This document shows, in pieces, positions 13,645 through 56,762 of a stretch of 64,000 nucleotides of DNA (position 1 is its first letter; the number at the start of each line of letters is the position of its first letter). Position numbers and translations under genes: made by a program. The notes under the pieces are model-generated. The model ran no database searches. It saw nothing but the letters and a program-made list of their open reading frames with translations, and was not told the origin of the DNA. Source of the stretch: an uncultured Gammaproteobacteria bacterium (GTDB taxonomy: Bacteria; Patescibacteriota; Microgenomatia; Levybacterales; UBA12049); NCBI GenBank assembly GCA_964497535.1, contig CAZCCG010000001.1:2688-66687 (forward strand). Direction: 5' to 3'.

Positions 13645-13775
13645 TCGGTTATCGGTTCTCAGTCTTCAGTTTTCGGATCCGAGTTTGCCAGTTTTCTGTT
13701 GATCAGTCAGAACCAATAGACTGAACCCCGATTAACCTACATCTGACAACAGATAACCGAGAACTGATAACTGGT
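13645..13775. repeat. MITE-like intergenic repeat family A, copy 1
   Basis: ttcggttatcggttctcagtcttcagttttc...gacaacagataaccgagaactgataactgg. Near-identical copies at 48585 and 56630. Confidence 0.8.
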
Positions 13776-13782
13776 TAGAGTT

Positions 13783-14055
13783 CTATTGAGTCTTTGTTGC
13801 ATTTTGCGCTTTAAGTTCCTTCAATTTCCACATAAACAGAGCTCCTTTTCGGTCTGCCTTACTATCCACACAAAACTGCAATGCCTTCTCAAGAATTGAC
13901 CGATGGGTTGTCTTTGCAAGCTTAATATAGAGACTTTTATGTTTATAGTCATCCAGTTGTTCAGCCAAATACATGCCGTATTTTTGGAATTCACGGGAAA
14001 TATATTTGTCCTGGACAGGGTTAAATGTATTGAGGATTGAAGACAGCTTTTGCAC
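13783..14055 (-). CDS. hypothetical small protein
   Basis: 90-aa ORF co-oriented with and immediately downstream of the 14064-14831 gene. Confidence 0.4.
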   Translation of the reverse strand: MQKLSSILNTFNPVQDKYISREFQKYGMYLAEQLDDYKHKSLYIKLAKTTHRSILEKALQFCVDSKADRKGALFMWKLKELKAQNATKTQ

Positions 14056-14063
14056 GAGTTTTA

Positions 14064-14831
14064 TTATACACTACTACCCCGTGGTGCTTTTAAATGAATC
14101 GTAGTGCGGGTTCCCACAATAGGACTTTTTTTTTGCGGCGGTAGTCCAAACTTCATAGAGAATTTTCCATTGATATCATAAGACACAATAGCACCTACAT
14201 CGTATGCTGGCTGCTGCTCTCTTCTAATATGAATTCTACATCCTCCTCCTGTACCTTCCCCCTTTACCATATCCGGATACCTGCCTGTTAAGTCACACAA
14301 CGCTTCGGCCGCAACAATATAATGCCCAAACCCCATAATCTGCCGGGGAGATCTCTGTAACCGGCTGGTAATTTGTGGTTCCGAAACATCCAGGTAAGGA
14401 GTAGACACGCTTGCTTGAGTTAAATACCATCCTGATTCCATATCTGGAGGATCTTGCGCCCTAAAAAAAGGTTGTCTCTTGATATACCCAAATATATCTT
14501 GCAGTTTCTCATGGTCCAAATCCTCCGGTATATAAATCATACGATACAGATGCCGCATTCGTCCTTCCAGCAGCTGTTGAGTTACCGGATCTGGATAGAC
14601 AACAGGAGCTACCGTAGGGATCCATCCGATCCTGCTTCCCCATTTATTCCATGTAGCGCTCCACCATGCATGAGTCACTTCAGGACTTACAATGCCATTT
14701 CTATATTCGGAGGCTAAATTGGAAACAAAAGTTTCGGGAGGATCTTGTGCAGATTCTTCTTGATGAGGATAGTTTCTATTGATACCATTGATGCCAGGGT
14801 AATTCCCCGGCGCATGTGCTTCGGGTCCCAT
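14064..14831 (-). CDS. hypothetical protein, higher-GC block
   Basis: 255-aa ORF with balanced composition, W/P/Y-rich. No motif recognised. Confidence 0.5.
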   Translation of the reverse strand: MGPEAHAPGNYPGINGINRNYPHQEESAQDPPETFVSNLASEYRNGIVSPEVTHAWWSATWNKWGSRIGWIPTVAPVVYPDPVTQQLLEGRMRHLYRMIYIPEDLDHEKLQDIFGYIKRQPFFRAQDPPDMESGWYLTQASVSTPYLDVSEPQITSRLQRSPRQIMGFGHYIVAAEALCDLTGRYPDMVKGEGTGGGCRIHIRREQQPAYDVGAIVSYDINGKFSMKFGLPPQKKSPIVGTRTTIHLKAPRGSSV

Positions 14832-14908
14832 AGCCTATCTTGTGTGGTTATACCACTCAACCAGGTAAATGTCAAAGCTACAAGCAGTAAATTTTGAAAG
14901 GCAAGATA

Positions 14909-15526
14909 TTATTTTGTATTGTAGCGGTTCATTGCAGCTTCAAGCCCTTGTTCCAATGCCATTGTAATAGCGTCTGCTCCCCGTTTTACCAATTCTTTTG
15001 CACGCTTACTATCTCCACCGGTAAATTTTCCCAAAACATAATCCCGGGCATCATGAATAATGTGTTTACTCATCTCGTCATGATTGTGCGAGATACCAAT
15101 TCCCATACGGAACCGCCAGAATTTGTCGGTTTTGAGTACTGTAAGAATTGACTCTACTCCCTTTTGCCCGGCAGAAGAACCTCCGAGCCTGATTTTCATG
15201 CTGCCCAATGGTAAATCTAACTCGTCTTGGATGATCCATATATCGTCCGGTTTTACTTTGTAGAAATGAGCCAAAAGACCTACTGCCATACCTGAATTAT
15301 TCATATGAGTCTTGGGCTTTGCGAGAATCACTTTTTCAAGTTTTCCATTTTTTGGTTGCCAATTGATTTCTGCTATATCGCTTTTGAACTTTGGGTCATC
15401 AGTCCATACTGTCTGCTCGACCGGTTCGAAGTCTTTGAAGAATTGCTCAACCACCATAAATCCCATATTATGGCGCGTTTTTTCATATTGTATGCCAGGA
15501 TTACCCAATCCAATAATTAATTTCAT
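14909..15526 (-). CDS. pth: peptidyl-tRNA hydrolase
   Basis: MKLIIGLGNPGIQYEKTRHNMGF, the Pth N-terminal signature. Confidence 0.9.
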   Translation of the reverse strand: MKLIIGLGNPGIQYEKTRHNMGFMVVEQFFKDFEPVEQTVWTDDPKFKSDIAEINWQPKNGKLEKVILAKPKTHMNNSGMAVGLLAHFYKVKPDDIWIIQDELDLPLGSMKIRLGGSSAGQKGVESILTVLKTDKFWRFRMGIGISHNHDEMSKHIIHDARDYVLGKFTGGDSKRAKELVKRGADAITMALEQGLEAAMNRYNTK

Positions 15527-15637
15527 TACCTCTATTCTACTCCGTTTTGTTAAAAAGTCTATGCCTTAAATCACAAAAAAGAACAGCATCAGAATTGTAA
15601 CATCCTTAAACTGTTCTTTTTATAAATAATTTCAGAA

Positions 15638-16138
15638 TTATTTATAGTAGGATTTAATTTGGAACAAGAGGTAGAACTCTACCGCTATCCAAAAGATATT
15701 CCATACTAAGCTCGCAATAGGCATGCCTCCATTTACCAGGGAAGATACTGCTGCAACTATTACATATACAACATTGAGTAATGTTACATATGTCAATAAT
15801 TTCCAACCGGACATTTTCTTATCTTTTGTTTTGGAAAAAGCCAATACTAACAGTATTCCTTCAAGAAGTGACAACAATGCCAGTACTACGAGAAAAACTG
15901 CAGTTGATACTCCTCCACCGACTGCAACTACTGGACTTGCCACAATGCTAAATAACGTTGCCAATCCTCCAAAGACAACTGAGAGTACTCCACCAATAAG
16001 AGCAAGCCATGGGGTTATGGTAACCAAAAATTCTCGTCCACCCTTTGGAAGTGGTGGAAGTGATTTATAGGTACTTTCCAGTGATACTACCCACGCGTCT
16101 GCTTGTTTGAATTCAATTGTTTTTTCTGTCATTTTCAC
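15638..16138 (-). CDS. membrane protein, hypothetical
   Basis: 166 aa with four TM helices. Confidence 0.5.
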   Translation of the reverse strand: MKMTEKTIEFKQADAWVVSLESTYKSLPPLPKGGREFLVTITPWLALIGGVLSVVFGGLATLFSIVASPVVAVGGGVSTAVFLVVLALLSLLEGILLVLAFSKTKDKKMSGWKLLTYVTLLNVVYVIVAAVSSLVNGGMPIASLVWNIFWIAVEFYLLFQIKSYYK

Positions 16139-16231
16139 TCACCTCCATTCTTGATAATCTGCCTCTAGCATCTATCATATTCACTGTACCGAAAACCAGA
16201 TGAGAAGGCAAGCCCCATTTATACGCTTATG

Positions 16232-16385
16232 GACTACAGTCTACGGTCTACAGCCAATCATGAATTAAGAATAAAGAATTATCCTTCGGCTGTGCTCAGG
16301 ACAAGTGAATCAAGGCGATACCATAACTCATAATTCATACTTCATAATTCCCAACTGTTAATTCTGAGAGGTAGTCAGTAGACTT
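16232..16385. repeat. MITE-like intergenic repeat family B, copy 1
   Basis: ...ccttcggctgtgctcaggacaagtgaatcaagg...cataactcataattcatacttcataattcccaactgttaattc, with inverted ctacagtctac / gtagac termini. Confidence 0.8.
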
Positions 16386-16388
16386 CGT

Positions 16389-17747
16389 TCAAAACAGGCC
16401 TTTCTGCTCTATTGCCATTTCCTGTTTTTGAGGTTCTTTACTCCAGATCTCTACCTTGCCATATTCCCCATCATATCCGGGGTCAATTGAGATATCTCCA
16501 TGGCGGACTTTTGCTATTCCCTCTGCTACTTTTTCCCCCCCTATTTTTTGGATTTCTGTAATATCCGATTTCAAAAGAATCTCAAGCTCTGAACCAAATG
16601 CGTTAACCAATGTATCATAGAGTCCTATTGTTTTTTGGGAAAATACAGTTGAATGCTGGCTTTCTGCCACAATTTCAAGCAACGGAACTAATTTTACATA
16701 AGGAGGTTGATGACGAGTTGAGTCCGTATACCATTTCAACCCACCCTGATTATATTTTTCCTCAAGGGTTGTAGTAGGATAAGAATCAGCAAGCTGCTGG
16801 ACCCGATATAAAACTCCTTCTGTCAAGACTTTCCCACAAACAGGACATTTATTCCCTTTTTCCTGCAGCTGTTTGGGATCTCTGACCACTTTGCAGTTGC
16901 GATGACCTGAAAAATGATATTTGCCCTCTTCCGGATAAAACTCGATTGTATAAATAACCTTGTTTTTGCCTTTTCGCATAATGGCACTTTTGAGCATTTC
17001 AAATGAAAGTTCTTCCAAATCCATAACCGTCGCTTCCCGGCCCATCTTTGCAGGACTATGTGCATCCGAAAATGAGAGAATAGACCGGTCTTTCAATTCA
17101 TCAATTGCCCAATTCATCTCAGGGTCGCTTGAAAGTCCTGTTTCAATACCATAAATATATTTCGCATAGTCCCCAAATGCTTCTTCCAGGCTGTCATATC
17201 CGCTTGCTGATCCATATATACCAAAATGCGGCGTCCAGATGTGGCATGGGATGAGAAAACTTCTCTCATCAATTTCCAGAATCAACTCCAACAGTTCTCT
17301 CGATTTCAATCCAATAATAGGTCTCCCATCAGCACTCAAATTACAACCGCGTTTTAAAAGTGCCTCATTGATCTTCTCTGCTGTCTCAAGGTTAGGAGAA
17401 AACACAAGGTTATGAATACGTCTTAGTTTGTCCTTATCTTTACAAATACTCGATATTTCCGTAGAAAGAAGAAAATATGGTTCTTTCCCTTGAGTATTTA
17501 TTTGATCTTTACTATTTGATGTTTGATTTTTTAGTCTATAAACCCCCTCATGTACCTCTTCCAGTTGTGACTTGATCTCTTTAAACCATACCGGATGGGT
17601 AAAATCAGAAGCAGTCAAAATATCCAGACCTTTTCTCCGCCCATACAAAGCCATCGTAGGCAATATCATATTCTGGCTTACCGCTCGGGAGAATCGTGAG
17701 TGTAAATGCAGATCGGTTACGTAATTCATCTGGCCATATTGTAGCAA
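16389..17747 (-). CDS. PHP-domain metal-dependent phosphoesterase with C-terminal zinc finger; Endonuclease Q-like
   Basis: DLHLHSRFS PHP HxH motif at the N-terminus. Cys cluster HRNC...KCPVCGK near the C-terminus. Confidence 0.5.
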   Translation of the reverse strand: MLQYGQMNYVTDLHLHSRFSRAVSQNMILPTMALYGRRKGLDILTASDFTHPVWFKEIKSQLEEVHEGVYRLKNQTSNSKDQINTQGKEPYFLLSTEISSICKDKDKLRRIHNLVFSPNLETAEKINEALLKRGCNLSADGRPIIGLKSRELLELILEIDERSFLIPCHIWTPHFGIYGSASGYDSLEEAFGDYAKYIYGIETGLSSDPEMNWAIDELKDRSILSFSDAHSPAKMGREATVMDLEELSFEMLKSAIMRKGKNKVIYTIEFYPEEGKYHFSGHRNCKVVRDPKQLQEKGNKCPVCGKVLTEGVLYRVQQLADSYPTTTLEEKYNQGGLKWYTDSTRHQPPYVKLVPLLEIVAESQHSTVFSQKTIGLYDTLVNAFGSELEILLKSDITEIQKIGGEKVAEGIAKVRHGDISIDPGYDGEYGKVEIWSKEPQKQEMAIEQKGLF

Positions 17748-17858
17748 AAAATTTCCCAGCTAGACACACCCGGTGTGTGGTAGGTAGACACATCAGGAAC
17801 TCTGGCTATTTCTCGTTATTGACAAATAGATTAGTTTGGGTCTACGCTAAAGCTTGTC

Positions 17859-18323
17859 ATGGGAATATCTTCTGCCGAAGCACTCTCACGGATCCATCGA
17901 CCAAATGTACATATCCCAAACCCATTGGCTTCTCTAGGGACAGGCATTGAGACACTCGCCAGGAAACTGGAACCTCCACCGCTAACAGCTGAAGAACGAG
18001 CAGAAGAAGAAATTCACAAAGCATGGGATGAATCTGCACACGACCCGCTGGTTCAACAAGCAGTGGATGTACTCAAAGGACACGCGCCGGGAACGCATAC
18101 AACGCTCCCCCATGGAACAGTATATGCAATGCGAATGGTTGAATTTCGAGATGAACAATATGAATTACAAACCAGAGTAGAATTAGGACCAGAAAACGAA
18201 AAACCTTTTGCCGAAGATCATCCGGCCAGACATTCCGAAACACCGGCATCAGAACACCCTGCTCCTCTTCCAAAACCATGGCTCCCCGTCCAATATGGAT
18301 ATGTGGGAACGCCATTTGATTGA
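17859..18323 (+). CDS. hypothetical protein; high-GC ORF overlapping the start of the downstream glycosidase gene (possible frameshifted N-terminal part)
   Basis: 154-aa ORF in a different frame from the 18208 ORF, with ~115 bp of dual coding. Confidence 0.3.
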   Translation: MGISSAEALSRIHRPNVHIPNPLASLGTGIETLARKLEPPPLTAEERAEEEIHKAWDESAHDPLVQQAVDVLKGHAPGTHTTLPHGTVYAMRMVEFRDEQYELQTRVELGPENEKPFAEDHPARHSETPASEHPAPLPKPWLPVQYGYVGTPFD

Positions 18324-20087: not shown

Positions 20088-20121
20088 CTTATACAAAATA
20101 CCATATACTGTATACCATATA

Positions 20122-21945
20122 CTATTTCTTTCCCTGATCTTTATACATTGCGCTCAGTTCTTTTACTGTTGTTATATCTTCTGCTTTTTTATCATCTCGA
20201 AACTTCACAAGTCGTGGAAATCTAAGGGCATACCCTACTCCTTTTGCTCCATCTATAAGCTCCATACCTGCTGTGTGAATAGGACTTCTGGTTATTTCAT
20301 CAGCCAGTACCTCAATGACGATTTGGGGACGGATCCAGACAGAAGGAGTAATGAATGAATTTACCCGTGCTGGTTTGTGATCCACTTTTATCTTATCGGC
20401 ACGTCTGTGGATTTCAGTCCATTCTTCATCGGTAAGCCCCGTACCGATACGAGTTACTGTTACAAACTCATCTTTCTTGTCATCATAGACTCCGACAAGC
20501 AGTGATCCGGCACCAAATGATGTGCGCTTCCCCTTTCCATAGATGTATCCTAGAATCACAACGTCGATGGTGTCATGCAGTTCCCCGGCACTATGGCGCT
20601 TGAGTTTTACCCAATTAAAATTTCTTCCTCCTGCTACGTATCCAGAATCAGGCCGCTTCACTACAACCCCTTCAAGACCTTTGGAGATAGAATCATCAAG
20701 CATCAACTGTAATTCTTCAGGTTTATGTAATATTTTCCCCGGTGCCGGGATTAGCGTGTCATCACCCTGAATTGATTCCTTAAGCAATTTCATACGCTGA
20801 GTCAGGGGTGTATCAAGGAGAGATTTCCCATCAACATACAGAATGTCAAAGACAAACGCTTTGAGGGGAAGTTGTTTTGCTGTTTCTTCAATGTTGTGTT
20901 TGCGGCGTCTTTTGGTTGTTTCCTGAAACGGTAAAAATTCTTCTGATTCAGCATTGTAAGCTAATGCTTCTGAATCAAGTATTACCGTTTTTGCTTTTAC
21001 TTGTTTGAGTGTTCCTTCGATGAGTTCCGGGAACATATGGGTCATTGTTTCTAAGTTTCTGGAATACATCTCAACCTTAGTACCATTCTTGTGTATTTGC
21101 ACTCTGAACCCATCGTATTTTGGAGTTGCATGAACTCCCTGTCCAACTTGCCCTGAGCCTGCCGAAGGAGCTTGCCCTGAGCCTGCCGAAGGAGCTTGCC
21201 CTGAGCCTGCCGAAGGGTCCATCTTCTCAAATACTTTGGTGGGATTTGGGAGCCGTTCACAGAGTTCTGATCGAATGGGACGGCCAACCGTTACTTTTAA
21301 CTTCTCCACTGCCTTGAGACCATCTTCACAAAGCGTCTTACCAATAAGCCCCAGATCTGATGTTTCATTGTATGCTTTTTCAAGCAGTTTACGATTACTC
21401 TTATCTCCCAATATTGCCGTAGCCAACCCATCCAACACGGTCGGGTCTCCAATCCCAAGCCGATTGTTTCCAAGCGGTATCCGAACCAGATGTTTTGCAG
21501 CTACAGCATCCATATGCTCCAGAAGTTGCCTGAGTGCGGTTATTTTTTTCTCAACAGACCCTGCACCACCAAACTGCGCAATCTTGGTCAGCTCGTTAAA
21601 CACAGTTGTTACTGACAGTTCTTCTTTTTTTCCTTTGTGTCGTTTATGTTGTGCTAATTCAAAAGCAACAAGACCCAAATCTCCTTTTTTGTTGTAATCT
21701 GTAAGTACTTCATCTTTGGAAAGTCCAAACGCTTCTCCAATACTTTGTGCAACCATCTTGTCAGCCATGCCAATCTCAACCGGTGAGAAAAATGGCCCTA
21801 CTCTGCCTTGTGTGAGATAAATAATTTTATCAATCTCCTCTTTTTGAGCAGCTTTAAATAGATCAGACAAAATCTCGATGAGCTTCAACCGGGATGGCGT
21901 CTGCTCAAGTTTTTCAAAATATTCACTGAGAGTAGTAAATTTCAT
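20122..21945 (-). CDS. lig: ATP-dependent DNA ligase
   Basis: KYDGFRVQIH adenylation motif I (KxDG) and an OB-fold-like C-terminal domain. Confidence 0.85.
   Translation of the reverse strand: MKFTTLSEYFEKLEQTPSRLKLIEILSDLFKAAQKEEIDKIIYLTQGRVGPFFSPVEIGMADKMVAQSIGEAFGLSKDEVLTDYNKKGDLGLVAFELAQHKRHKGKKEELSVTTVFNELTKIAQFGGAGSVEKKITALRQLLEHMDAVAAKHLVRIPLGNNRLGIGDPTVLDGLATAILGDKSNRKLLEKAYNETSDLGLIGKTLCEDGLKAVEKLKVTVGRPIRSELCERLPNPTKVFEKMDPSAGSGQAPSAGSGQAPSAGSGQVGQGVHATPKYDGFRVQIHKNGTKVEMYSRNLETMTHMFPELIEGTLKQVKAKTVILDSEALAYNAESEEFLPFQETTKRRRKHNIEETAKQLPLKAFVFDILYVDGKSLLDTPLTQRMKLLKESIQGDDTLIPAPGKILHKPEELQLMLDDSISKGLEGVVVKRPDSGYVAGGRNFNWVKLKRHSAGELHDTIDVVILGYIYGKGKRTSFGAGSLLVGVYDDKKDEFVTVTRIGTGLTDEEWTEIHRRADKIKVDHKPARVNSFITPSVWIRPQIVIEVLADEITRSPIHTAGMELIDGAKGVGYALRFPRLVKFRDDKKAEDITTVKELSAMYKDQGKK
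21148..21219. repeat. in-frame 24-bp tandem repeat x3 inside the ligase gene (encodes PSAGSGQA x3)
   Basis: cttgccctgagcctgccgaaggag repeated three times. Confidence 0.85.
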
Positions 21946-21948
21946 AGA

Positions 21949-22530: not shown

Positions 22531-22531
22531 A

Positions 22532-23581: not shown

Positions 23582-23696
23582 TTGTATGAATCATGAAATA
23601 ACCTTTATTCATAATTCGTTATTCCTAATTCGGATTTAATTACCGCATATTTCCCGAATAAAGTCAACAGGAGAGGTAGTATGATATACTATTCCT

Positions 23697-23963: not shown

Positions 23964-24012
23964 TCGGCTCTCCTCAATATAATATTTATAACTTTTATAA
24001 CAATTATAAATT

Positions 24013-24687: not shown

Positions 24688-25535
24688 GATTGTTGTAAAA
24701 GATCCTTCATGGTATGAGGTATCTCAAGTGCCAAATCAGAAGCATTGAAGTACAGACCCATGGTAGAAAAGAGTGCTTCTCCAGCCTTTTTATTGATATA
24801 ACTACCGGCCTGCGCTGCCAAAAACGGTTCATTCTTTGTCGCAAGTGCTGCGACAAGCCCTGCCAATACATCACCTGTACCGCCTTTCGTCATCCCGGCA
24901 TTTCCTCCCAAAACTTCTACTGTCTCACTCCCATTGGAAACACTATCCTTCTCCCCCTTCAGCAAAACAATACACTTATATTCCTCCGCAAAAATCTGTG
25001 TTTGTTCTTGCAATTGATCTGTTGTTTTAAGCTTTTCGCTTTTCACTTTTCGCTTTATTATTTCGAATTCTTTCGGATGCGGTGTCAGGATTGCATTTCG
25101 GGGAATATACTCAGGTTCTATTGTCTGCAAACTTCCCCCATCAATTACCCACTTTTTATGGGGATATTTTTTGAGCAACCGCTCTGTTAATTCTTTTGTA
25201 TCATCATCCCCTGTTTCTTGACCATCAGCTCGTGGCAACCCGGGCCCAATAAGGATTGCATCTGCTTCTTCCATATAATCATCTACTTTCCCTCGAGGAA
25301 CAATAATACCGTTTCTAAATTCTTCCTTGAGTTTTTCAACAATCTGATTGTTCTCGTCCACTGATGAATAAAACACCATATCAACAATTCGAGATGCGAT
25401 TTGAAGAGCCCAGAGAGATGCGGCATGAAACAAACGGGATCCCCCAATAATCATAAGTTTCCCATTCATCCCCTTGTGAGAATCCGGTGCTGGAATATAA
25501 AGATTATGTAATATTTCAGGATCGAATGATTTCAT
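24684..25535 (-). CDS. nnrD: ADP-dependent NAD(P)H-hydrate dehydratase (YjeF C-terminal domain)
   Basis: IGGSRLFHAASLWALQIASR...GGNAGMTKGGTGDVLAG signature. 4-bp overlap with recF and dedA. Confidence 0.8.
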   Translation of the reverse strand: MKSFDPEILHNLYIPAPDSHKGMNGKLMIIGGSRLFHAASLWALQIASRIVDMVFYSSVDENNQIVEKLKEEFRNGIIVPRGKVDDYMEEADAILIGPGLPRADGQETGDDDTKELTERLLKKYPHKKWVIDGGSLQTIEPEYIPRNAILTPHPKEFEIIKRKVKSEKLKTTDQLQEQTQIFAEEYKCIVLLKGEKDSVSNGSETVEVLGGNAGMTKGGTGDVLAGLVAALATKNEPFLAAQAGSYINKKAGEALFSTMGLYFNASDLALEIPHTMKDLLQQS

Positions 25536-30632: not shown

Positions 30633-31249
30633 ATCGGCTGCTGCGGGATAAGATTATTAAATTTCACATTGACATAATCCAAATGAAGCAGAATGAAAAA
30701 CAACAGAATCCCCAGCGTCACAATGAATACTTCCTGTGCAATTCTTTTATGATTACGAGATAGCTTGATAGTAACAAGATAAAATAATGCTAAAAGGCTT
30801 GAAACTGAAAACATATAAATAGCATGCCACAGTCCCAATAAATTCCAGTGCCACGGTGTTGGCATGGCCCAATTTACTAAATTATTTACCGCCTGGCTGA
30901 TATGAAAATAAATCGTTATCAGTCCCCCAATAATCAAAGCTAAAGTCAAAAGTTTTTGGGTAATAACTTTTCTATTATTCAGCAAATAACTGGCGACAAT
31001 CATATTGATAATCGGCAATAAAATTCCATCACCTAGAATCGCTGATTTATAGGTCAAGCTGCTACGAAGACTTTCCACCAATGGAGAATGAATTGAATAG
31101 AGATAGATGTTGAGGATTGCGGCTGCACCGAATCCAAAAAAAAATGTTGCAATCCCAACAGAGAGAATAATATTTCTTTTACGTGCAAGGAAAGGATTTT
31201 CTTCAATTCTTTTGATAAGCAGTGCTGCTCTCATAGGCTTTTTTAACAA
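30629..31249 (-). CDS. membrane protein, hypothetical
   Basis: 206 aa with five to six TM helices. Overlaps the MFS start by 4 bp. Confidence 0.5.
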   Translation of the reverse strand: MLKKPMRAALLIKRIEENPFLARKRNIILSVGIATFFFGFGAAAILNIYLYSIHSPLVESLRSSLTYKSAILGDGILLPIINMIVASYLLNNRKVITQKLLTLALIIGGLITIYFHISQAVNNLVNWAMPTPWHWNLLGLWHAIYMFSVSSLLALFYLVTIKLSRNHKRIAQEVFIVTLGILLFFILLHLDYVNVKFNNLIPQQPI

Positions 31250-32429
31250 ATGTCTGTATTTCTTTTTGGAAACGTTCTTTTGAAAATAGAGCAGCTTGTT
31301 TGATACAAGCTTGACGTGACCATTTTATTGTATCAAATTTTTGGATTGTGGAAAGCAGAGCATTTACACTTAATTCATGAAAAAAGAGTCCTGTCTTTCC
31401 TTCAACGACAGACTCTTTGTATCCCCCGCCATAGAATGCAACAACCGGGGTACCACAGAGCATTGATTCAACCGGAGTAATCCCAAAATCTTCATCTGTT
31501 GCCAATGCCAAAAATGCTTTTGCTTGAGAATAAAGTTGTATCAATTCTTCATCAGTTACATGTCCTAAAAACTCTACATTCTTCTGTGCAAGTTTTTCAA
31601 GCTTTTTATGTTCTGTATAATACCCTGCCGCAACTCCTGCAATTTTGAGATTAAATCCCCCTTTGACTGCTGCCTCTACCGCCAAATCCAACCCCTTCCC
31701 CCCTACAATCCGCGCGAGAATAAAAAAGTACTCTTCCTTTTTATTGTCATTCTCAGCTTGACTGAGAATCGTGGATCCTCGCTTTCGCGAGGATGACTGG
31801 GAGGTATTACTCGATAACTGTTGGGGTAACGAAACCGGAGGATAAATCACTGTCGCATCACGACGATAAAACTTTTTGATCCGTGCTGCAGTTTCACGAG
31901 AGTTGGCAATAAAGTAATTTACTTTTTGTGCAGCAGTGAAATCATACATTCGCATGAAATGTCCGACAATCGCAGCATATACCCGTACCGGCCAGTATTT
32001 TTGAAACTCAATCGAAGTCTTATATCCATACAACCACCGTGGCGGCGTATGGCAGTAACAAACCTCGATAGGACTACTGCTAACTGCTAACTGATTACTA
32101 CTAACTCTTCGGGAGCCGAATCCTTTGGTTACATACCAAGAAGCTGATGAGATAACAACATCATACTGCATCAATTCCTTTTTGAATGAACCCCACACGA
32201 GCGGTGCCAAAAACCGCAGCGGACTATGCAGATAGCTTGAGAAAAATGGGATGAAGTGAACCCATGAAGGCTTAATAACTCTACTTTTGAGTTGTTGATA
32301 TGCGTATGAATCCTTTTTATAAAACGCCGTATAGATAGGCGCTTCAGGATAGAGCTCGGCCAGTGCTTCCAGCACACGCTCTGCTCCCCCATACTCTTTA
32401 ATATAGTCGTGTATTAATGCTACCTTCAT
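31203..32429 (-). CDS. glycosyltransferase family 1 (GT4-like)
   Basis: EYGGAERV N-terminus and a C-terminal E..GITPVES..CGTPVVA..GG..E motif. Internal S-rich low-complexity insert. Confidence 0.75.
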   Translation of the reverse strand: MKVALIHDYIKEYGGAERVLEALAELYPEAPIYTAFYKKDSYAYQQLKSRVIKPSWVHFIPFFSSYLHSPLRFLAPLVWGSFKKELMQYDVVISSASWYVTKGFGSRRVSSNQLAVSSSPIEVCYCHTPPRWLYGYKTSIEFQKYWPVRVYAAIVGHFMRMYDFTAAQKVNYFIANSRETAARIKKFYRRDATVIYPPVSLPQQLSSNTSQSSSRKRGSTILSQAENDNKKEEYFFILARIVGGKGLDLAVEAAVKGGFNLKIAGVAAGYYTEHKKLEKLAQKNVEFLGHVTDEELIQLYSQAKAFLALATDEDFGITPVESMLCGTPVVAFYGGGYKESVVEGKTGLFFHELSVNALLSTIQKFDTIKWSRQACIKQAALFSKERFQKEIQTFVKKAYESSTAYQKN

Positions 32430-32505
32430 AAATCCTTTCGTATTTCGGGACGCTCAGACATTCCTATATACAATATACGAAATACTAAATACAAACACGC
32501 CTTAC

Positions 32506-34094: not shown

Positions 34095-34240
34095 CTTGAC
34101 TACAGTCTAATCATGAATTAAGAATAAAGAATTATCCTTCGGCTGTGCTCAGGACGAGTGAATCAAGGTAATACCATAACTCATAATTCATACTTCATAA
34201 TTCCCAATTGTTAACTACTGACTGCTAACTCCTCCTATAT
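34095..34240. repeat. repeat family B, copy 2
   Basis: Near-identical to 16232-16385. Confidence 0.8.
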
Positions 34241-34270
34241 ACTAAATACAAAATACTCTATACTTACCCT

Positions 34271-39413: not shown

Positions 39414-40439
39414 TTACAACAGGCCCATTTTTTCTCGGACTTCTCTGACTGTTTGTTCTGCGACTGCTCGTGCTTTTTCTGCCCCCTCTGCAATAATCTG
39501 GTCTACTCTCTTTGGATCTGCTTCCAATTCTTTTCTTATCATCTGAATTGGTCGTAGATCTGTATGTATTGCTTCTGAGAGCTCTTTTTTAACATCACCA
39601 TAGCGAATACCCGTTGATTGATATTGCTTATGGAGTTCTTTCTCTTTTTCTAGTCCTTCAAATAACCGCACAAATGTCATAAGCGTTGCAATACCAGGAG
39701 CTTCTTGCCCACTTTCATTGATAAATGTAAACCTGCTATCTGTATGATGAATACTCCCCCTCCCTGAATCTGTTGGGATTTTTGCAATTTTCTCTGCAAT
39801 CGTTTTGAGTTCATCGGTCAAGTTAATATAACTTCCCTCCACACTTTTACTCATCTTCCCAACTCCGATCAGTGATGGAATATATTCTCCTTCTGTCGCA
39901 AACCGCTTGGGTTCTGGGAAGTCTGTTCCATAATCTTGATTCATCCGTCTGGCAATTTCGCGGGCAACTTCAAGATGCGGCTCCTGGTCAATACCTACCG
40001 GAACCAGTCCTGCTTTGTATACCAGAATATCTGCTGCCATCAGGACCGGATAATTGAGAAGCGCGAGCGTCGCATGATCCGGATATTGTTTGACTTTTTC
40101 TTTGAATGTCGGCAAATGCTGCATCTTGGCTATAGTAACGACTGATGACAAATAAAATGCCAATTCTATATGTTCTGGCACATCTGATTGGAGAAATAAT
40201 ACTGACTTTTGCGGATCAAGACCTGCTGCAAGATAATCAATAATTACTTCTCGTCTATTCCGGCGAAGTTCATCAATATTATAAGGAGTAGTCACCGCAT
40301 GAACATCTGCAACCATATAAAAGGTTTCATATGTTGGATCATCTTGTAACGCAAGCATGCCTTTGAGAGCACCAAGATAATTACCAAGATGTAATCTCCC
40401 GGTTGCTCGAATACCCGATAATACTCTTTTTTTATTCAT
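39414..40439 (-). CDS. trpS: tryptophan--tRNA ligase
   Basis: GIRATGRLHLGNYLG (HIGH-like) and KMSKS motifs. Confidence 0.9.
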   Translation of the reverse strand: MNKKRVLSGIRATGRLHLGNYLGALKGMLALQDDPTYETFYMVADVHAVTTPYNIDELRRNRREVIIDYLAAGLDPQKSVLFLQSDVPEHIELAFYLSSVVTIAKMQHLPTFKEKVKQYPDHATLALLNYPVLMAADILVYKAGLVPVGIDQEPHLEVAREIARRMNQDYGTDFPEPKRFATEGEYIPSLIGVGKMSKSVEGSYINLTDELKTIAEKIAKIPTDSGRGSIHHTDSRFTFINESGQEAPGIATLMTFVRLFEGLEKEKELHKQYQSTGIRYGDVKKELSEAIHTDLRPIQMIRKELEADPKRVDQIIAEGAEKARAVAEQTVREVREKMGLL

Positions 40440-40930: not shown

Positions 40931-41055
40931 TATGTATTATTCTAGCAAATCCTTCCCTGACGGGTTGGGTGTAGCACCGTGCCCTTGGCCGGTTGCTGGA
41001 TGGATCATCGAGCCAATACTCTCCCCATCTCTCACGATTTATTTAATTAATCCTA

Positions 41056-45372: not shown

Positions 45373-45390
45373 TAAAGAAAAAAACCACTT

Positions 45391-45418: not shown

Positions 45419-45610
45419 ACCCAACCACAAAATAAAGCTACTTATAATAAACAAGTAGCTTTATTGCAAATAATAGACCATATTTTATTTCTACTCTCTT
45501 TTTTTTAACATTGGGTAAGAATCCTTGTATGCTTGCGTAAGAAAATACCCAAGTAGCCCCATATGGCTTGACAAATATAGGCCTAGAGTGATACACTTAT
45601 CTTTTCTGAT

Positions 45611-46740: not shown

Positions 46741-46825
46741 AGGATTTTCACATTCAGCTATTTAGCCTCTAGATATTTCCAAAAACATATGTTACAATAC
46801 ATTCTATTATAGGACTAGAGCTACT

Positions 46826-47686: not shown

Positions 47687-47729
47687 TTTTTATAATAGTT
47701 ATAAAGATTATAACTATTATATCCTTCCC

Positions 47730-48443: not shown

Positions 48444-48463
48444 AGTATCTCTTCTCTCAACTG

Positions 48464-48534
48464 TAGGCCCAGAGGGAATCGGACCCCCGTCAAGTGTGTA
48501 TAAGACACCCGCTCTACCATTGAGCTATGGGCCT
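48464..48534 (-). tRNA. tRNA with anticodon TAT (tRNA-Ile-UAU, AUA-decoding)
   Basis: Hand-folded. Perfect 7-bp acceptor AGGCCCA/TGGGCCT, D-arm GCTC-AATGGTA-GAGC, anticodon loop CTTATAC, T-arm GGGGG-TCCGATT-CCCTC. Confidence 0.65.
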
Positions 48535-48584
48535 GGGAACTACGTAATTTTACCAGAGAGAGCTCAAGGAGACAAGCCAGGACT

Positions 48585-48715
48585 CGGTTACCAGTTCTCT
48601 GTTTTCTGTCATCAGATAGAAGTTCGTCAGTTTTCGGTACTTCAGTTTTAACAGATTAACTGAGAACAGATAAACCCGCATCTGATAACTGACAACCAAA
48701 AACCGATAACTGAAG
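48585..48715. repeat. repeat family A, copy 2
   Basis: Diverged copy of the 13645 element. Confidence 0.7.
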
Positions 48716-48724
48716 TTTCTATTC

Positions 48725-51091: not shown

Positions 51092-51097
51092 AGGCAG

Positions 51098-51619: not shown

Positions 51620-51683
51620 ATAGGTTAATCATAGCATGAAAGAAGAATTACAACAAACAAACTGATCGGGTAACAACAAGAGT

Positions 51684-52562
51684 TTATGCAGCTTTCTTTT
51701 CTTCTTTTTTATCTTTTTTCCCTTTGCAGATACACTTATATTCTTTTTTATTCCCTCCACAAACATCACATTTTTCAATCTTTCTTTCCACATTACCAAA
51801 AAGAGCAGGCCCAACAACCAACCGCTGATAGGGTTCTAAAGAAGGAAGACTATGTGATATCTGAGCAGCTTCTGCTTCTTTCAGCTCAAAAAATCGTGCA
51901 CAACTTGCAGCACAATCTGCAACAGTTGGACCCTGATCAACAATAACCATTGTCACATCTACATTTTCTCTACATTGCCGAACAATTTCTCCTACCTGCT
52001 CTTTATGAGCTTCGTCCTTTGGTAACTCTAACAGATTAAATTTGCGGGTCTTTCCCATATCCCATCCTAACACTTCCCCATCTTGATATTCATATGCACC
52101 TTGATAAATATGCCCTCCATCTGCAACTTTTGCTCTGGGCGTATCTGCAAAAAGACTTTCAAAATGATTGTTCTGAATTGTGGGCGCTTCTTCAAACAAT
52201 GATGGCAGTGTATTATAATATTTAACCATTGATTGACTCTCATGATCAGGATGGTCGGATGTTAGAACATTGCGAGGAACACTAATCAGCCTATCAAGTA
52301 CATCCATATTAAGCCCCGGTTGTGCTAAAACTTTTAAATCTCCATTTGCAAATGATGTAGGTTGTGCATAAGGATCTTCAGGGTTTAAGATTCCGGTCAT
52401 CATCTTATCTGTCATTTCATGTGATATATCCCGTGGAAGAGGATAAGAAATATAGGAAATATTATTCCCTTGCTTTTGAATGATCTGAATAAATGCTCCA
52501 TAATCCGGACTCATCGGTTCGGCTTCTTTTATTGGGTTTGGTGCGAATTCTAGTCTTGGCAT
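51684..52562 (-). CDS. hypothetical protein with Cys/Lys-rich C-terminal tail
   Basis: 292 aa ending ...CDVCGGNKKEYKCICKGKKDKKEEKKAA. First gene of the minus-strand operon. Confidence 0.5.
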   Translation of the reverse strand: MPRLEFAPNPIKEAEPMSPDYGAFIQIIQKQGNNISYISYPLPRDISHEMTDKMMTGILNPEDPYAQPTSFANGDLKVLAQPGLNMDVLDRLISVPRNVLTSDHPDHESQSMVKYYNTLPSLFEEAPTIQNNHFESLFADTPRAKVADGGHIYQGAYEYQDGEVLGWDMGKTRKFNLLELPKDEAHKEQVGEIVRQCRENVDVTMVIVDQGPTVADCAASCARFFELKEAEAAQISHSLPSLEPYQRLVVGPALFGNVERKIEKCDVCGGNKKEYKCICKGKKDKKEEKKAA

Positions 52563-52765
52563 AATTAGTTTATGGCGCGTGGCTCGTAGCGTATGGAAAT
52601 TTCTATGTGCTATATCCTATAACCTATGCGCTCCTCTCCTCCTGTTTTTCTGTATATGGACAATTGCGACAATTATTATTACAGCAAAATCCTCTTTTTT
52701 GCAAGAATAATTTAGTAAATACTACCATCCCATTCTCATCGATAGTATACTCTTGTTCATCTCCA

Positions 52766-53365
52766 TTATTCATGGGTTCTCCATTCTATTTCTTTTTTCT
52801 TTTCTCTCATATTTACATAGCGAGCCATGGTAAATAGTACATCTGCCAAACGGTTCAGATATGCGACAATCTGCTCTTCTACCGCTTCTCCTTCAAATAA
52901 ATTAATTACTCTTCGTTCTGCCCTGCGGCAAATAGAGCGGGCCAGATGCACCGACGAACCCGCAACCGAACCGCTGGGCAAAATAAAAGAATGCATTGGC
53001 TTGAGTTTTTCAGTAAGTTCATCAATCGTCTGTTCCAATTCTTTGACACGCTTTTTTAAATATGATGGCAAGGTTTTGTGGATCTCCATTCCCTTGGTCA
53101 CATGAGTATCATGAGGGGTTGCCAACACTGCACCGATTTCAAATAAATCCTTTTGTATCTGATCCAATTCATTTTTGAAGTTCTTCTTATATTTTTGGTT
53201 TTTAACTCTCGAGTTTTGGATTTGTGCACTGGCAAAACCCAATGCGCTATTGAGTTCATCAACAGTCCCAACAGCGTCAATTCGCCCGGAGCTTTTTGAG
53301 ATTCTCTTGCCTCCAAACAGTGATGTTTCTCCCCTGTCTCCAGTACGTGTATAGATTTTACTCAT
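52766..53365 (-). CDS. pduO: PduO-type ATP:cob(I)alamin adenosyltransferase
   Basis: MSKIYTRTGDRGETSL...GRIDAVGTVDELNSALG signature. Confidence 0.85.
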   Translation of the reverse strand: MSKIYTRTGDRGETSLFGGKRISKSSGRIDAVGTVDELNSALGFASAQIQNSRVKNQKYKKNFKNELDQIQKDLFEIGAVLATPHDTHVTKGMEIHKTLPSYLKKRVKELEQTIDELTEKLKPMHSFILPSGSVAGSSVHLARSICRRAERRVINLFEGEAVEEQIVAYLNRLADVLFTMARYVNMREKKKEIEWRTHE

Positions 53366-53864
53366 AAAAAATCCTCCTTGTTTCAGAACCCAAGAAGGAT
53401 GTGCGCACAAAAAAAATCCTGCTCGGGAACATCCACCAGCTGGCGGAAAAAGTATAGTTTTCTGGCTTTCCCTTCAATTCACTCAGGTAAAGGAAAATTT
53501 ATCCTGAGCTTGTCGAAGGACAGTAGCGGCACTGCCATGGATTTGCACCATGATTGCCTATACTTCCAATTTTTTATACTACGCTCTTTCTTTTTTGCAA
53601 TCAATACCCTATAACAAATTGCCTCTGTGAAGTAACTGGAGTATAATAGCTAGATTCAAAGTTGATCAAATCACTATTTGCGATCTGATTTTCTTTGAAA
53701 TCAGTACCTTAACATGTATGGAATAAATACCCTTTTTTCTCGGCAGAGACCACAGGAATGACAGTATCACCGATACTCTTTCTTTGGTCTTTGCTAAGAG
53801 GAGGGCAAAGGAAGAAACGGTAGACAATGCATCCATTACGCAACTCTCATAAGAGAAGGAGCTA

Positions 53865-54023
53865 TGGGTCAACAAGAAATCATCCACTGTGGCCAGTGCG
53901 GGACACCCATTCACATAACTAACCTTAAGCAAGTTCCACGAGCTGAAGGGATAGAGCTGAAATGCCCCGTCTGCCACGGTACACCCATAGTCAAACCCTA
54001 CTGTGAGTCTCGCGACAATTAGG
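53865..54023 (+). CDS. small zinc-ribbon protein (52 aa), absent from the ORF track
   Basis: Strong RBS AGAAGGAG 5 nt before the ATG. MGQQEIIHCGQCGT...CPVCHG, i.e. CxxC...CxxC. Confidence 0.45.
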
Positions 54024-54032
54024 GGAGTCCTG

Positions 54033-54317
54033 ATGGATCAGATTCCACCTCTCTGTGGCATCGAACGATGCAAACCTAGGGGTAGAAAGTTCAAAGTGGT
54101 CGTTATCAACCAGCACGCGCTGGGTGATGAAGCCATCACGAGGGCACTCTCACATCAACAGGGAAACTACAACCATCCTTTGGATATTACATCTCTGCGG
54201 GAACTCAGCAAAGAGAACGCAGAAGCATGGTGCGCCATGATAAATGACGTGCATCAGAAACTGGTAGCCTTCATCACACCGCCCGAGAACAAGAAGACAG
54301 TTGCACAGGAGGCATGA
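54033..54317 (+). CDS. hypothetical protein (high-GC island)
   Basis: MDQIPPLCGIERC..., with RBS GGGGAG. Confidence 0.4.
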   Translation: MDQIPPLCGIERCKPRGRKFKVVVINQHALGDEAITRALSHQQGNYNHPLDITSLRELSKENAEAWCAMINDVHQKLVAFITPPENKKTVAQEA

Positions 54318-54318
54318 T

Positions 54319-55128
54319 ATGCAACTTCTCGATGGGAAAACTGCTCTGATCTTTGGCGTTGCCAACGAGCGTAGTTTGGCCTGGGGCATCGCACAGGCGC
54401 TTGCCGCCCAGGGTGCAATGTTGGCGTTTACTTACGCAGCAGACGCGCTGGAGAAGCGGGTTCGCCCGCTAGCTGCTCAGGTCGGTTCCCACTTCGTCGA
54501 GCGCTGCGACGTTCAAGATGACACCGAGCTGGATACGGTATTCCGTCGCTTCGGCGAAGAATATTATCCACGGCTCGATATCCTTGTTCATGCAGTTGCG
54601 TTTGCAAAGCGAGAAGAACTCGCTGGACGCTACGTAGATACCTCCCGTGAGGGATTCCAATTGGCCCTCGACGTAAGTGCCTACTCCCTGGTGGCACTTG
54701 CTAAACGAGCTGCGCCGCTGATGGCAGGCACCAACCCGAGCATCCTGACGCTGACCTACGACGGCTCGCAACGCACGTATCCCAACTATAACGTGATGGG
54801 AGTGGCAAAAGCCGCTCTTGAGGCGAGTGTGCGATACCTCGCCCGAGATTTGAGCCCGGATGGTATTCGGATCAACGCAATCTCCGCTGGTCCAGTTCGG
54901 ACACTTGCATCATCTGGAATCCGTGGATTCCACTGGATTCTGGATCATGGTGCAGAACGAGCACCGCTACGTCGTAACATCGGACAAAGTGATGTCGGGG
55001 ATGCCGCTGTCTACCTCAGCTCTGACCTGGCCCGTAATGTCACAGGTCACGTGTTGTATGTTGATGCCGGTTCTCACATTGTTGGCGCAGAGCTAGGTGC
55101 CAGCGAGCGGGAAACTGCTGGCGACTAA
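54319..55128 (+). CDS. fabI: enoyl-[acyl-carrier-protein] reductase (NADH), FabI
   Basis: LDGKTALIFGVANERSLAWGIA N-terminus and the Y-x6-K region (YNVMGVAKAALE). ~57% GC. Confidence 0.9.
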   Translation: MQLLDGKTALIFGVANERSLAWGIAQALAAQGAMLAFTYAADALEKRVRPLAAQVGSHFVERCDVQDDTELDTVFRRFGEEYYPRLDILVHAVAFAKREELAGRYVDTSREGFQLALDVSAYSLVALAKRAAPLMAGTNPSILTLTYDGSQRTYPNYNVMGVAKAALEASVRYLARDLSPDGIRINAISAGPVRTLASSGIRGFHWILDHGAERAPLRRNIGQSDVGDAAVYLSSDLARNVTGHVLYVDAGSHIVGAELGASERETAGD

Positions 55129-55462
55129 TCCATTCCACACATCCTATCAGGGCGAGAGGGTGCAATCTTGTACTCTCCGCCCTGTAATTTTTACTTTTCA
55201 GCATTGGTTCGCGTAACGATCCGCGTAGTTCAGCGGTATTTTTGCGTTCTCTCTTCTTTTCCTCTATAATTCCAAACGAAGAATAATTCAGTTCCTTGTA
55301 GACTGTTGTTTTTCGCACATTTACATGTCTGCGCAAAAAAATCTTTGTTACAGAAGCAACGGCTATGGGAAGATAACTCCTTATCTTTCTGTAGGCTTTG
55401 CTTCTTCCTTCTTGGGTGCAACCCAAGAAAAATAACAGAGAAGCACGTCAGAAAGGGAACCC

Positions 55463-55915
55463 ATGAAATACAAAAGGCTTGTGAGTATTGTAGGAAACGG
55501 GATGCTGATGGTGGCGGGTCTTGGGCTTATGACAATCCCCACCAACATGCTGGTAATCATTCTGGGGATATCAGTCTATTCTATCGGAGTACTACAGTTC
55601 ATACAAGCACTTCGGCCCAGACCCCTGGTGAGACACTATGTCACCGACTTTGGTTATCGACTCGAGTTCTACCGACAAGCAGAGCTCTGGATATTTCGAC
55701 TTCAAAGGAAAAGGGGGAACAGACGTTTTAACCAATGGTATACCATCAGTCAATCCAGCTATTCTCCCCCCTTGACTCCCACGGGACTACACAGTCTGTA
55801 CGAACAGATATATAGAGGAGTGGATGCGGGATATGACCTGGAAGCAGGACGCCTCTGGAACCATATGCTGACATACCTGCACGGGCATCAACTCTTGGTA
55901 GGAGAATCTGCGTAA
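55463..55915 (+). CDS. membrane protein, hypothetical (high-GC island)
   Basis: Two N-terminal TM helices. Confidence 0.45.
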   Translation: MKYKRLVSIVGNGMLMVAGLGLMTIPTNMLVIILGISVYSIGVLQFIQALRPRPLVRHYVTDFGYRLEFYRQAELWIFRLQRKRGNRRFNQWYTISQSSYSPPLTPTGLHSLYEQIYRGVDAGYDLEAGRLWNHMLTYLHGHQLLVGESA

Positions 55916-55928
55916 GAAAGGACTGACT

Positions 55929-56531
55929 ATGCGTATCGCAGTCTTGTCTGAGGAACCCATCACTGAGTTCCCCCAGGAGGAGGGATTCGAGTGGACACGC
56001 GTCGGTCTCGACCCAGCAACCTGGTCACCCGGAAAATTCGATTGCTTCGTAGTGAAAAGCCCATACAGGAAACTCTTTATCCAGGAAGTAACCAAGAGGT
56101 GGAAATCCCGGAGCGATTTCCCTGCAGCTCCTTACCTTATGGTGTCACGCCGAGGACGGGTTCCCAAGGATTACCGCGACGGGTTCGACGGGTATGTGGT
56201 AAAACTACAGGAACTTGTAGAGTTTGCAGGAGCCATCAGCGACCGCAAGAGAGACTACGCCAACCGTAACAGAGTAGACACCCGACCTCCGTTGGAGCCT
56301 CCCCCTGTAGGTGAGAATCTATCCTGTTCCGAGTGCGGCCTGCTTCTGCGTACGACCGATCACGAAAAAGAGGGAGAGGACTATACCCCGTTCGTAGAAG
56401 AACGAACCCGGGGATGGGAAATCCCTTGTCCGGGATGCCACAACCCCCTGCGTATCTACGAATCGGTTACTGGACCCATACCCGAGTGGCAACCCCTCGT
56501 GGATGAGGCAGACTTGGGACGAGGCGTCTAG
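55929..56531 (+). CDS. hypothetical protein with C-terminal zinc ribbon
   Basis: CSECG...CPGCHNP. Confidence 0.5.
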   Translation: MRIAVLSEEPITEFPQEEGFEWTRVGLDPATWSPGKFDCFVVKSPYRKLFIQEVTKRWKSRSDFPAAPYLMVSRRGRVPKDYRDGFDGYVVKLQELVEFAGAISDRKRDYANRNRVDTRPPLEPPPVGENLSCSECGLLLRTTDHEKEGEDYTPFVEERTRGWEIPCPGCHNPLRIYESVTGPIPEWQPLVDEADLGRGV

Positions 56532-56556
56532 TACCACGCGCAGACACACCACACCA

Positions 56557-56583
56557 GGGCGGTCGAGTCTGACTCGACCGCCC
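56557..56583. repeat. GC-rich palindromic hairpin GGTCGAGTCTGACTCGACC (family shared with 662-686 and 63894-63917)
   Basis: gggcggtcgagtctgactcgaccgccc. Confidence 0.8.
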
Positions 56584-56629
56584 CCAAACATCCTCTACTA
56601 AATGCACCCATTGAAAGCTAAAATATGAA

Positions 56630-56762
56630 GTTCGGTTATCGGTTCTCAGTCTTCGGTTTTCAGATAAAGGTTCTTCAGTTTTCTGTTTATCAGTTAGAAC
56701 CGAAAGACCGATCACTGGTAAACTTCGCTCCGACAACTGACAACAGAGAACTGATAAGTGGA
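56630..56762. repeat. repeat family A, copy 3
   Basis: ttcggttatcggttctcagtcttcggttttc...gacaacagagaactgataagtgg. Confidence 0.8.

Follow-up and report, generated by a model that had tools for sequence, protein, structure and literature searches.

Intergenic heptamer-word hairpins in a Levybacterales genome, a probable gene-less form of an intervening sequence-type four-helix-bundle cassette

A 64,000-nucleotide stretch of contig CAZCCG010000001.1 (assembly GCA_964497535.1, GTDB order Levybacterales), referred to here as the window, carries three copies of a short non-coding element that we term family A and that an initial annotation had described as resembling a miniature inverted-repeat transposable element (MITE). 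We consider it likely that family A consists of solo arms, the gene-less state of a hairpin cassette of the intervening sequence (IVS) type, which in its complete form encloses a gene for a four-helix-bundle protein, and that the solo arms act as a co-transcribed stem for RNase III-type processing or RNA stability, with words that are read by a protein. Sequence comparison identifies family A as the gene-less form of a cassette that also exists as an intervening sequence of ribosomal RNA (rRNA).

A repeat search and alignment of the window place the three copies in one collinear direct-repeat family of 131 nt (Table 1), at the three places where elements of about 130 bp had been described. They are also inverted repeats of one another, at 70–72% in the repeat search, and each matches its own reverse complement at 61–64% of positions. 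Copies 1 and 3, previously taken to be near-identical, agree at 103 of 131 positions (79%), and copy 2 is 70% identical to copy 1 and 72% to copy 3. A profile derived from the three copies detects no fourth on either strand of the 64 kb window. The same profile recovers full-length relatives from other assemblies with E-values of approximately 1e-22 to 1e-26, which excludes a chance origin of the family.

On either strand each copy is predicted to form a single long imperfect hairpin with 45–48 pairs (-36 to -44 kcal/mol, z -2.9 to -4.1), closed by an apical loop of 4–5 nt that is free of any open reading frame (ORF). Eight or nine degenerate heptamer words make up each arm; those of the 5′ arm read GTTNTCN and those of the 3′ arm the complementary NGANAAC. 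In both arms of copy 1 the head-to-tail arrangement of 7-nt units is evident as a self-match at lag 7 of at least 20 in 28 positions. The word consensus is C-R-G-T-T-N-T in the 5′ arm and A-N-A-A-C-Y-G in the 3′ arm, the latter a degenerate relative of TAACTGA. That exact heptamer is present only as single words, one of which ends copy 2, the arrays otherwise being composed of ANAACYG variants. The hairpins and the match of each copy to its own reverse complement agree with the inverted symmetry of gttatc/gataac and cagtt/aactg words noted at the outset. The ends, CGGTTATCNGTTCTC and GAGAACNGATAACYG, are complementary, a terminal inverted repeat formed by the outermost words of a hairpin that spans the whole element.

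No copy matches an Rfam 15 family at the gathering threshold, the window giving only two tRNAs and an S-adenosylmethionine (SAM) riboswitch. Promoter and terminator scans called neither a σ70-like promoter nor an intrinsic terminator within any copy. A possible σ70-like promoter pointing outward from the right arm, CTGACA-N17-GATAAC, was dropped, being too weak and not called by the scan.

Table 1. Family A, other heptamer-word features of the window, and three gene-bearing cassettes of other genomes
Feature	Position	Details
Family A copy 1	13644-13774 (+)	left arm (GTTNTCN words) ~13644-13704; apical loop 13705-13709; right arm (NGANAAC words) ~13710-13774
Family A copy 2	48583-48713 (+)	arms ~48583-48646 and ~48651-48713; apical loop 48647-48650
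Family A copy 3	56631-56761 (+)	arms ~56631-56694 and ~56699-56761; apical loop 56695-56698
Second three-copy family, 106 nt	16256-16361, 34109-34214, 62521-62626	96% and 77% identity; heptamer-word hairpin with AATNANG/CATAANT words
AAACGNA array	3946-4027	spacer
AAATATN array/hairpin	12734-12829	fills the spacer adjoining the operon that holds copy 1; only a 42-nt spacer there in L032
TATACNA arrays	20090-20127, 32460-32498, 34232-34267, 62906-63004 (array at 62960)	spacers
CTTTTCG array	25020-25065	spacer
L157 cassette		between protein genes
L155 cassette		between the 3′ end of 23S rRNA and 5S rRNA, beside LAGLIDADG ORFs
L159 cassette		carried by an 848-nt insertion, itself in a helix loop of 16S rRNA, model position 1069/1070

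Relatives were sought with a 21-nt degenerate word pattern in one genome scan and one metagenome scan, which gave 29 and at least 120 matching stretches, respectively, and the matches were then sorted by profile searches. We estimate that about four matches to the first pattern would be expected by chance. Approximately 25 distinct, collinear, full-length copies of 120–140 nt emerge, on contigs of 36–45% GC from Levybacteria, Collierbacteria, Gottesmanbacteria and other Microgenomates. In copies from different genomes the distinct words follow one another in the same order (ATC, CTC, TTC, TTC ... GAC, GAC, GAA, GAT) and the non-periodic central part is shared, and in the alignment of 25 copies 34 columns are invariant and 31 nearly so, with an overall identity of 77% per column. 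The usual location is between genes on the same strand, with 2–42 nt from the stop codon to the element and 2–33 nt from the element to the next start codon, and the element may lie in either orientation. Plain arrays of the same words, as distinct from full elements, occur in Flavobacterium segetis, Daejeonella, Lutibacter, Acidobacteria, Pirellulales and others. The Rhodospirillaceae matches of the genome scan (L002, L008, L015 and L021) proved to be a chance match within repeated coding sequence, and the two matches on viral contigs are likewise chance events inside coding sequence.

In two of the genomes small GC-rich hairpins of about 28–40 nt (for example CCCGCCCCGCTTCGCGGAGCGAGGCCGGG) are inserted in, or replace, the outer words of family A copies, at ~2216–2245 of locus L024 and at ~1640–1680 and 2220–2247 of L026. 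They may represent a second, smaller element that targets family A hairpins.

The complete form of the element is seen at L025/L086, L042, L059, L085 and L152, where the arms are split, lie about 380 nt apart and enclose an ORF of 124 amino acids. This ORF and its leader of about 25 nt occupy exactly the position of the apical loop in gene-less copies, and its stop codon, TGA, falls within the AACTGA word with which the right arm opens. At least eight gene-bearing loci were found (L025, L042, L059, L085, L152, L155, L157 and L159). The 124-residue protein matches the TIGR02436 model, 'four helix bundle protein', with an E-value of 2.9e-14 and a score above the curated cut-off, and carries the database label PF05635, '23S rRNA-intervening sequence protein'. 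It is unusually conserved, at 73–100% identity across the 120 best clusters listed (Levy-, Gottesman- and Daviesbacteria and others); for comparison, the DedA-type protein encoded next to copy 1 is 50–60% identical across most of the homologues listed, and the TraG-like protein beside copy 2 reaches 71–77%.

The three cassettes in Table 1 differ in setting: one lies between protein genes, one between rRNA genes and one inside a 16S rRNA gene. At L159 a gene-less hairpin, complete in itself, stands immediately before the ATG, and beyond the stop codon there is another right arm. No transposase or reverse transcriptase is found among the genes called beside the cassettes of L155, L157 and L159. 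L155 and L159 share additional conserved flanks, AATACCGAGGGAAGCTT before the cassette (~2905–2925 and ~880–900, respectively) and TATAGCCCYGTAWCGACTGAT after it (3432–3460 and 1483–1510), which suggests that the hairpin cassette is part of a larger unit of insertion, itself conserved.

The closest known system is the rRNA intervening sequence with an S23p or 23S_rRNA_IVP ORF, as in Leptospira and Coxiella burnetii. In the Coxiella element three or four GACAGAT heptamers in tandem come before the S23p ORF, which lies within a terminal-inverted-repeat stem that is cut by RNase III (PMC4990558). In candidate-phyla bacteria, rRNA genes contain 23S_rRNA_IVP ORFs and also short insertions without an ORF that are presumed to be intervening sequences (PMC11270868). 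The likeness extends to the stem with inverted ends, the four-helix-bundle ORF in the loop of the full-length relatives of family A, the heptamers beside that ORF, the location of family A cassettes in a 16S gene and a 23S–5S spacer, and the existence of ORF-less forms. The window copies differ in lying outside rRNA and lacking an ORF, and in having stems of about 60 bp that consist of degenerate heptamer words throughout, their mismatches conserved and set at regular intervals. Excision by RNase III is known for the Coxiella stem and is assigned to family A by analogy.

How might the solo arms function in this genome? We suggest that the window copies are transcribed together with their neighbours. 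Two minus-strand genes flank copy 1, which fills the spacer from 8 nt past the stop codon (13783) of a 90-residue ORF to 6 nt before the ATG (13638) of a gene for a membrane protein of the VTT/DedA type; this neighbour has a match to the Pfam VTT_dom model. Such a spacer leaves no room for a separate promoter. Copy 2 lies 12 nt past the stop codon (48725, minus strand) of a gene for a TraG/VirD4-like coupling protein. Read on the minus strand, it is upstream of a promoter-like TTGTCT-17-TAAAAT (48575–48547), the only hit of the promoter and terminator scans at the copies, and of tRNA-Ile(tat) at 48463–48534, so that it faces the promoter side of the tRNA. Copy 3 separates convergent gene ends, those of a 200-residue ORF (56531) and nrdJ (56889). 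The transcript would fold into an imperfect stem of approximately 60 bp, and by analogy with the stems excised from rRNA precursors this may constitute an RNase III-type site for processing or stability, a role that the arms would also have to fill where they lie in rRNA. The pentameric four-helix-bundle protein, supplied in trans, would be the best candidate for a reader of the words on solo arms, and copies would spread with neither target-site duplication nor the involvement of a transposase.

The pattern of conservation within the stem bears on what is being maintained. In a hairpin model of 55 pairs applied to 25 copies, 76.1% of cells pair in register; this falls to 26–47% when the 3′ partner is slid by one to three columns, so the hairpin register is real. 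There is no covariation in the stem (score 0.077 against a shuffled mean of 0.117), and the observed pairing is below or equal to that of all 500 column shuffles. Three mismatches are themselves conserved: columns 19/125 hold C/A, and both 26/118 and 33/111 hold U/C. Within each word, conservation extends to five of the seven positions even at mismatches between the arms, and changes at the variable positions are uncompensated. It appears, from these alignments, that selection or a templated process keeps the words rather than the pairs. Because the variable positions lack covariation and the word cores are kept at mismatches between the arms, the words are probably read by a protein. A grammar of 7-nt words that is kept regardless of pairing, and that is specific to each protein lineage as described below, suggests that the pentameric four-helix-bundle protein reads them and acts on solo arms in trans.

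Several observations weigh against the proposal of a co-transcribed, protein-read processing stem. The lack of covariation and the conserved mismatches count against selection for the stem as such. Copy 3, between convergent gene ends, is less obviously co-transcribed. Processing by RNase III is drawn from the analogy with rRNA intervening sequences, and word binding by the four-helix-bundle protein is putative. A tblastn search and a profile of 11 diverse members of the protein family (E > 1) give no four-helix-bundle gene in the 64 kb window, which also holds no rRNA, the family A copies here being in spacers of protein and tRNA genes. Lastly, word arrays of the same type are found in other phyla with no four-helix-bundle gene in the flank fetched (L001, L003, L004, L022 and L028).

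A plausible though unlikely alternative is that the element acts as DNA. The inverted heptamer sets, whether double- or single-stranded, would then be binding sites for the four-helix-bundle pentamer or some other factor and would regulate neighbouring genes or maintain the element itself, with the RNA hairpin and RNase III irrelevant. Invariant word cores, variable positions that do not covary and conserved mismatches would all be expected of protein-binding arrays, as would the strict periodicity common to many unrelated word families around four-helix-bundle genes; the elements also abut start codons and, in one case, a promoter-like site. We note, however, that the full-length form is found in rRNA genes and spacers, a setting in which stems of this kind are known to serve excision from RNA (PMC4990558), that a spacing of 7 bp is out of phase with the DNA helix, and that the binding is itself putative.

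Are the copies simply functionless, selfish remnants, solo arms decaying in spacers that tolerate them after loss of the four-helix-bundle gene? The copies are old and diverged, no such gene is near them in the window, and they occur in either orientation and in varied contexts. This explanation is nevertheless disfavoured and we regard it as improbable. The variable positions are saturated, at about 71% overall identity, while 65 of approximately 130 columns are invariant or nearly so among copies that come from different classes, which neutral decay would not preserve, and the length is tightly held at about 120–140 nt.

A classical MITE, that is to say a non-autonomous deletion derivative of a DDE-type insertion sequence that is moved in trans and has terminal inverted repeats and target-site duplications, is less probable still. 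Family A is short, non-coding, dispersed, symmetric from end to end and related to a longer element with the same termini, and to that extent the earlier description as MITE-like stands. It fails in other respects. In 24 copies, with offsets allowed, the best candidate target-site duplications are chance matches of 0–4 nt with no consistent length or sequence. No autonomous insertion sequence with the same termini was found; in the scans, the only longer elements ending in family A termini enclose the 124-residue TIGR02436 gene rather than a transposase gene. The inverted symmetry extends over the whole length and is heptamer-built.

The suggestion of recent mobility, made when copies 1 and 3 were thought near-identical, is also not supported. 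Identities within the window are 0.78, 0.71 and 0.71, compared with a mean over all pairs of 0.715 (standard deviation 0.054) for 25 copies from many genomes; divergence within the genome thus equals that between genomes and gives no sign of a recent burst of copies. The copies are not fixed at their sites, a point that would suit a MITE. In a related species (L032), in which gene order is the same and the DedA protein is 82% identical, copy 1 is missing and 35 nt replace the 150 nt of window positions 13639–13788. Copy 2 is missing from L160–L163, where the TraG-like gene is 77% identical; in L160 and L161 the spacer before tRNA-Ile(tat) is 41 nt, and elsewhere among the four the tRNA is on the opposite strand. 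The full-length cassettes, too, occupy differing contexts in differing genomes. The absence of copies 1 and 2 from orthologous sites and the varied contexts of the cassettes indicate that the family is gained and lost site by site, leaving no duplication. Family A is therefore better called a gene-less IVS-type hairpin than a MITE.

Independent local slippage of heptamers with palindrome formation, which would involve no homologous family at all, might draw on the many types of heptamer array scattered here (with the threshold of at least 20 matches in 28, 14 regions of the window at lag 7 against 0–3 at the other lags from 4 to 12) and on the variation in heptamer number among Coxiella strains (PMC4990558), but is refuted by the collinearity over all 130 nt of copies from the window and other genomes, which share the same ordered, distinct words and the same non-periodic central part.

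The association of heptamer words with four-helix-bundle genes extends well beyond family A. Approximately 21 of 23 such genes examined, from candidate-phyla bacteria, Flavobacterium and cyanobacterial plasmids, are bracketed by periodic word arrays, mostly of heptamers. For the first 17 genes scored, 23 of 34 flanks reach at least 20 of 28 matches at lag 7; of 1185 background tiles taken from these loci, 56 do so. Divergent genes of candidate-phyla bacteria have their own inverted words, ATAGANN/NNTCTAT, TTAGAAG/CTTCTAA and the 8-nt GNTATATN; further words around such genes are AGTTATN, AATTTTC/GAAAATT, GCAACAA and TAGTATT, and in one arrangement a double layer, GTGAACN, lies inside GANAACN. 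The four-helix-bundle gene of Flavobacterium segetis, only 27% identical, lies between long GTTNTC/GANAAC arrays. On cyanobacterial plasmids five of six genes annotated 'four helix bundle / S23 ribosomal protein' have flanks of this type, with the word pairs GGGAAAA/TTTTCCC, GGTGACA/TGTCACC, GCAGGGA/TCCCTGC and GGGTGTG/CACACCC, and an Oscillatoria gene is accompanied by direct G-rich arrays. The gene flanked by GGTGACA/TGTCACC arms on plasmid pANA02 of Anabaena sp. 90 (L167) is located between cas6 and cas4 of a CRISPR-cas operon.

On this basis we tentatively raise a more general possibility, that proteins of the four-helix-bundle family (S23p/Avd-like, TIGR02436) are the partners of bacterial heptamer repeats. 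Each lineage would have its own 7-nt word, the gene would travel in a hairpin of that word, and gene-less hairpins would still be bound in trans for spread, maintenance or RNA processing. Perhaps one word is bound per subunit of the pentamer ring, and many of the cyanobacterial short tandemly repeated repetitive (STRR), TAACTGA and GGGAATC arrays are possibly solo arms.

The heptamer repeats in question have been described in their own right. TAACTGA repeats lie just 5′ of start codons in Beggiatoaceae, Cyanobacteria and Bacteroidetes, and a binding protein was proposed, not identified (MacGregor 2015; PMC4679880). Xanthomonas has GGGAATC arrays in 70–75 convergent, hairpin-forming pairs (Rehm 2015; PMC4692102). 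Family A resembles TAACTGA, STRR and GGGAATC repeats in consisting of intergenic, tandem 7-nt words. Such repeats often stop just short of a start codon (PMC4679880); copy 1 (6 nt) and most related copies (2–33 nt) do the same, and copy 2, on the promoter side of a tRNA, and copy 3, between convergent gene ends, do not. It differs in being a homologous, collinear family of fixed length with degenerate, ordered words rather than a variable microsatellite, and in its tie to a four-helix-bundle gene. Neither of the two papers names the four-helix-bundle family. Within the collection of papers searched, pairing that family with heptamer repeats gave only the Coxiella paper (PMC4990558), which is no proof that the link is unpublished. 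The repeat family is thus made up of components already known, IVS-type cassettes on the one hand and heptamer repeats on the other, and the tie between them through the four-helix-bundle protein is absent from both heptamer-repeat papers.

Other small palindromes offer a more distant comparison. The ERIC and YPAL elements of enterobacteria and the Correia elements of Neisseria are imperfect palindromes of about 100–170 nt in intergenic or intercistronic positions, thought to form RNA hairpins in transcripts, and Correia elements have TA duplications and defined terminal repeats. To our knowledge none of them is built of heptamers or linked to a four-helix-bundle gene. Family A is similar to them in palindrome size and placement, and we see no relation in sequence.

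If the general pairing is correct, two puzzles would be linked, the nature of the intergenic heptamer repeats of cyanobacteria, giant sulfur bacteria, Bacteroidetes and Xanthomonas and the manner in which rRNA intervening sequences spread. There would be a transposase-free class of mobile cassette that also explains the intervening sequences of the S23p type. One homologous element is seen here in three states: as bare arms between genes, with a four-helix-bundle gene in the loop, and inside rRNA genes. A protein family and a class of repeat are thereby paired in a concrete way that can be tested, and a MITE annotation is not appropriate for repeats of this kind in the genomes of candidate phyla.

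Each copy in the window had also been placed beside a block of anomalous GC content or accessory genes. The positions themselves are correct: copy 2 is between the tRNA-Ile and the TraG-like gene, and copy 3 is between the fabI block and the nrdJ–nrdR pair with its flanking inverted repeat. As to composition, the description clearly applies only to the fabI block, at 0.52–0.56 GC against a window mean of 0.42 (standard deviation 0.035). Near copy 1 the gene of 255 residues is only mildly high at 0.451 and that of 90 residues is at 0.385. The TraG-like gene is 71–77% identical across Levybacteria and so is core rather than accessory. The 255-residue ORF (14064–14831) has no Pfam match and is missing from the syntenic block of L032, where pth adjoins the homologue of the 90-residue ORF. 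The adjacency of tRNA-Ile (anticodon UAU) and the TraG/VirD4-like gene, seen in the window and at four of four related loci (L160–L163), is conserved in the lineage.

Copy 3 is flanked by a GC-rich hairpin (56557–56582) after the 200-residue ORF and, on the nrdJ side, by one arm (56818–56870) of a 53-nt inverted repeat. The second arm is at 59806–59858, so that the repeat, which is 94% complementary, brackets the nrdJ–nrdR pair. Each arm contains a GC-rich mini-hairpin resembling the small hairpins nested in family A copies of other genomes. The hairpin after the 200-residue ORF is one of two GC-rich 26-nt palindromes of the GGGCGGTCGAGTCTGACTCGACCGCC type. The other is at 63893–63918, the two are 92% mutually complementary, and each follows a gene end in the manner of a terminator without a T run.

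A periodicity of seven bases is a trait of the spacers of this genome, and family A is one word-family of a broader class of heptamer-word hairpins, examples of which are listed in Table 1. The second three-copy family has a GC-richer central insert, CCTTCGGCTGTGCTCAGGACAAG, with GTAGACT/CTACAGT arrays beside it at 16225–16255, 16370–16385 and 62630–62660. The reverse complement of that insert recurs as the motif CTTGYCCTGAGC....CGAAGG, in three tandem 24-nt copies (21147–21218) within the minus-strand ORF 20122–21945 and once at 53498–53521. An array of the CTAACTG type at 32072–32110 is in frame within an ORF of 408 residues (31203–32429, minus strand) and encodes ...RRVSSNQLAVSSS... A one-sided CTGATAC/GTATCAG array (10985–11035) is just upstream of a YibE_F gene and, unlike copies 1 and 2 of family A, is present at the same site in the related genome (7250–7300 of L032). 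A direct repeat of 71 nt (2783–2853 and 2926–2996), with the two units 143 nt apart and 89% identical, includes the GC-rich segment CCAATGTTCGGCCTCCAACGCAGCGGCGCACCCAAACCCTGCGGCGG. The SAM riboswitch (Rfam RF00162, 48.3 bits) occupies 40944–41043 on the minus strand, upstream of the minus-strand ORF 39414–40439.

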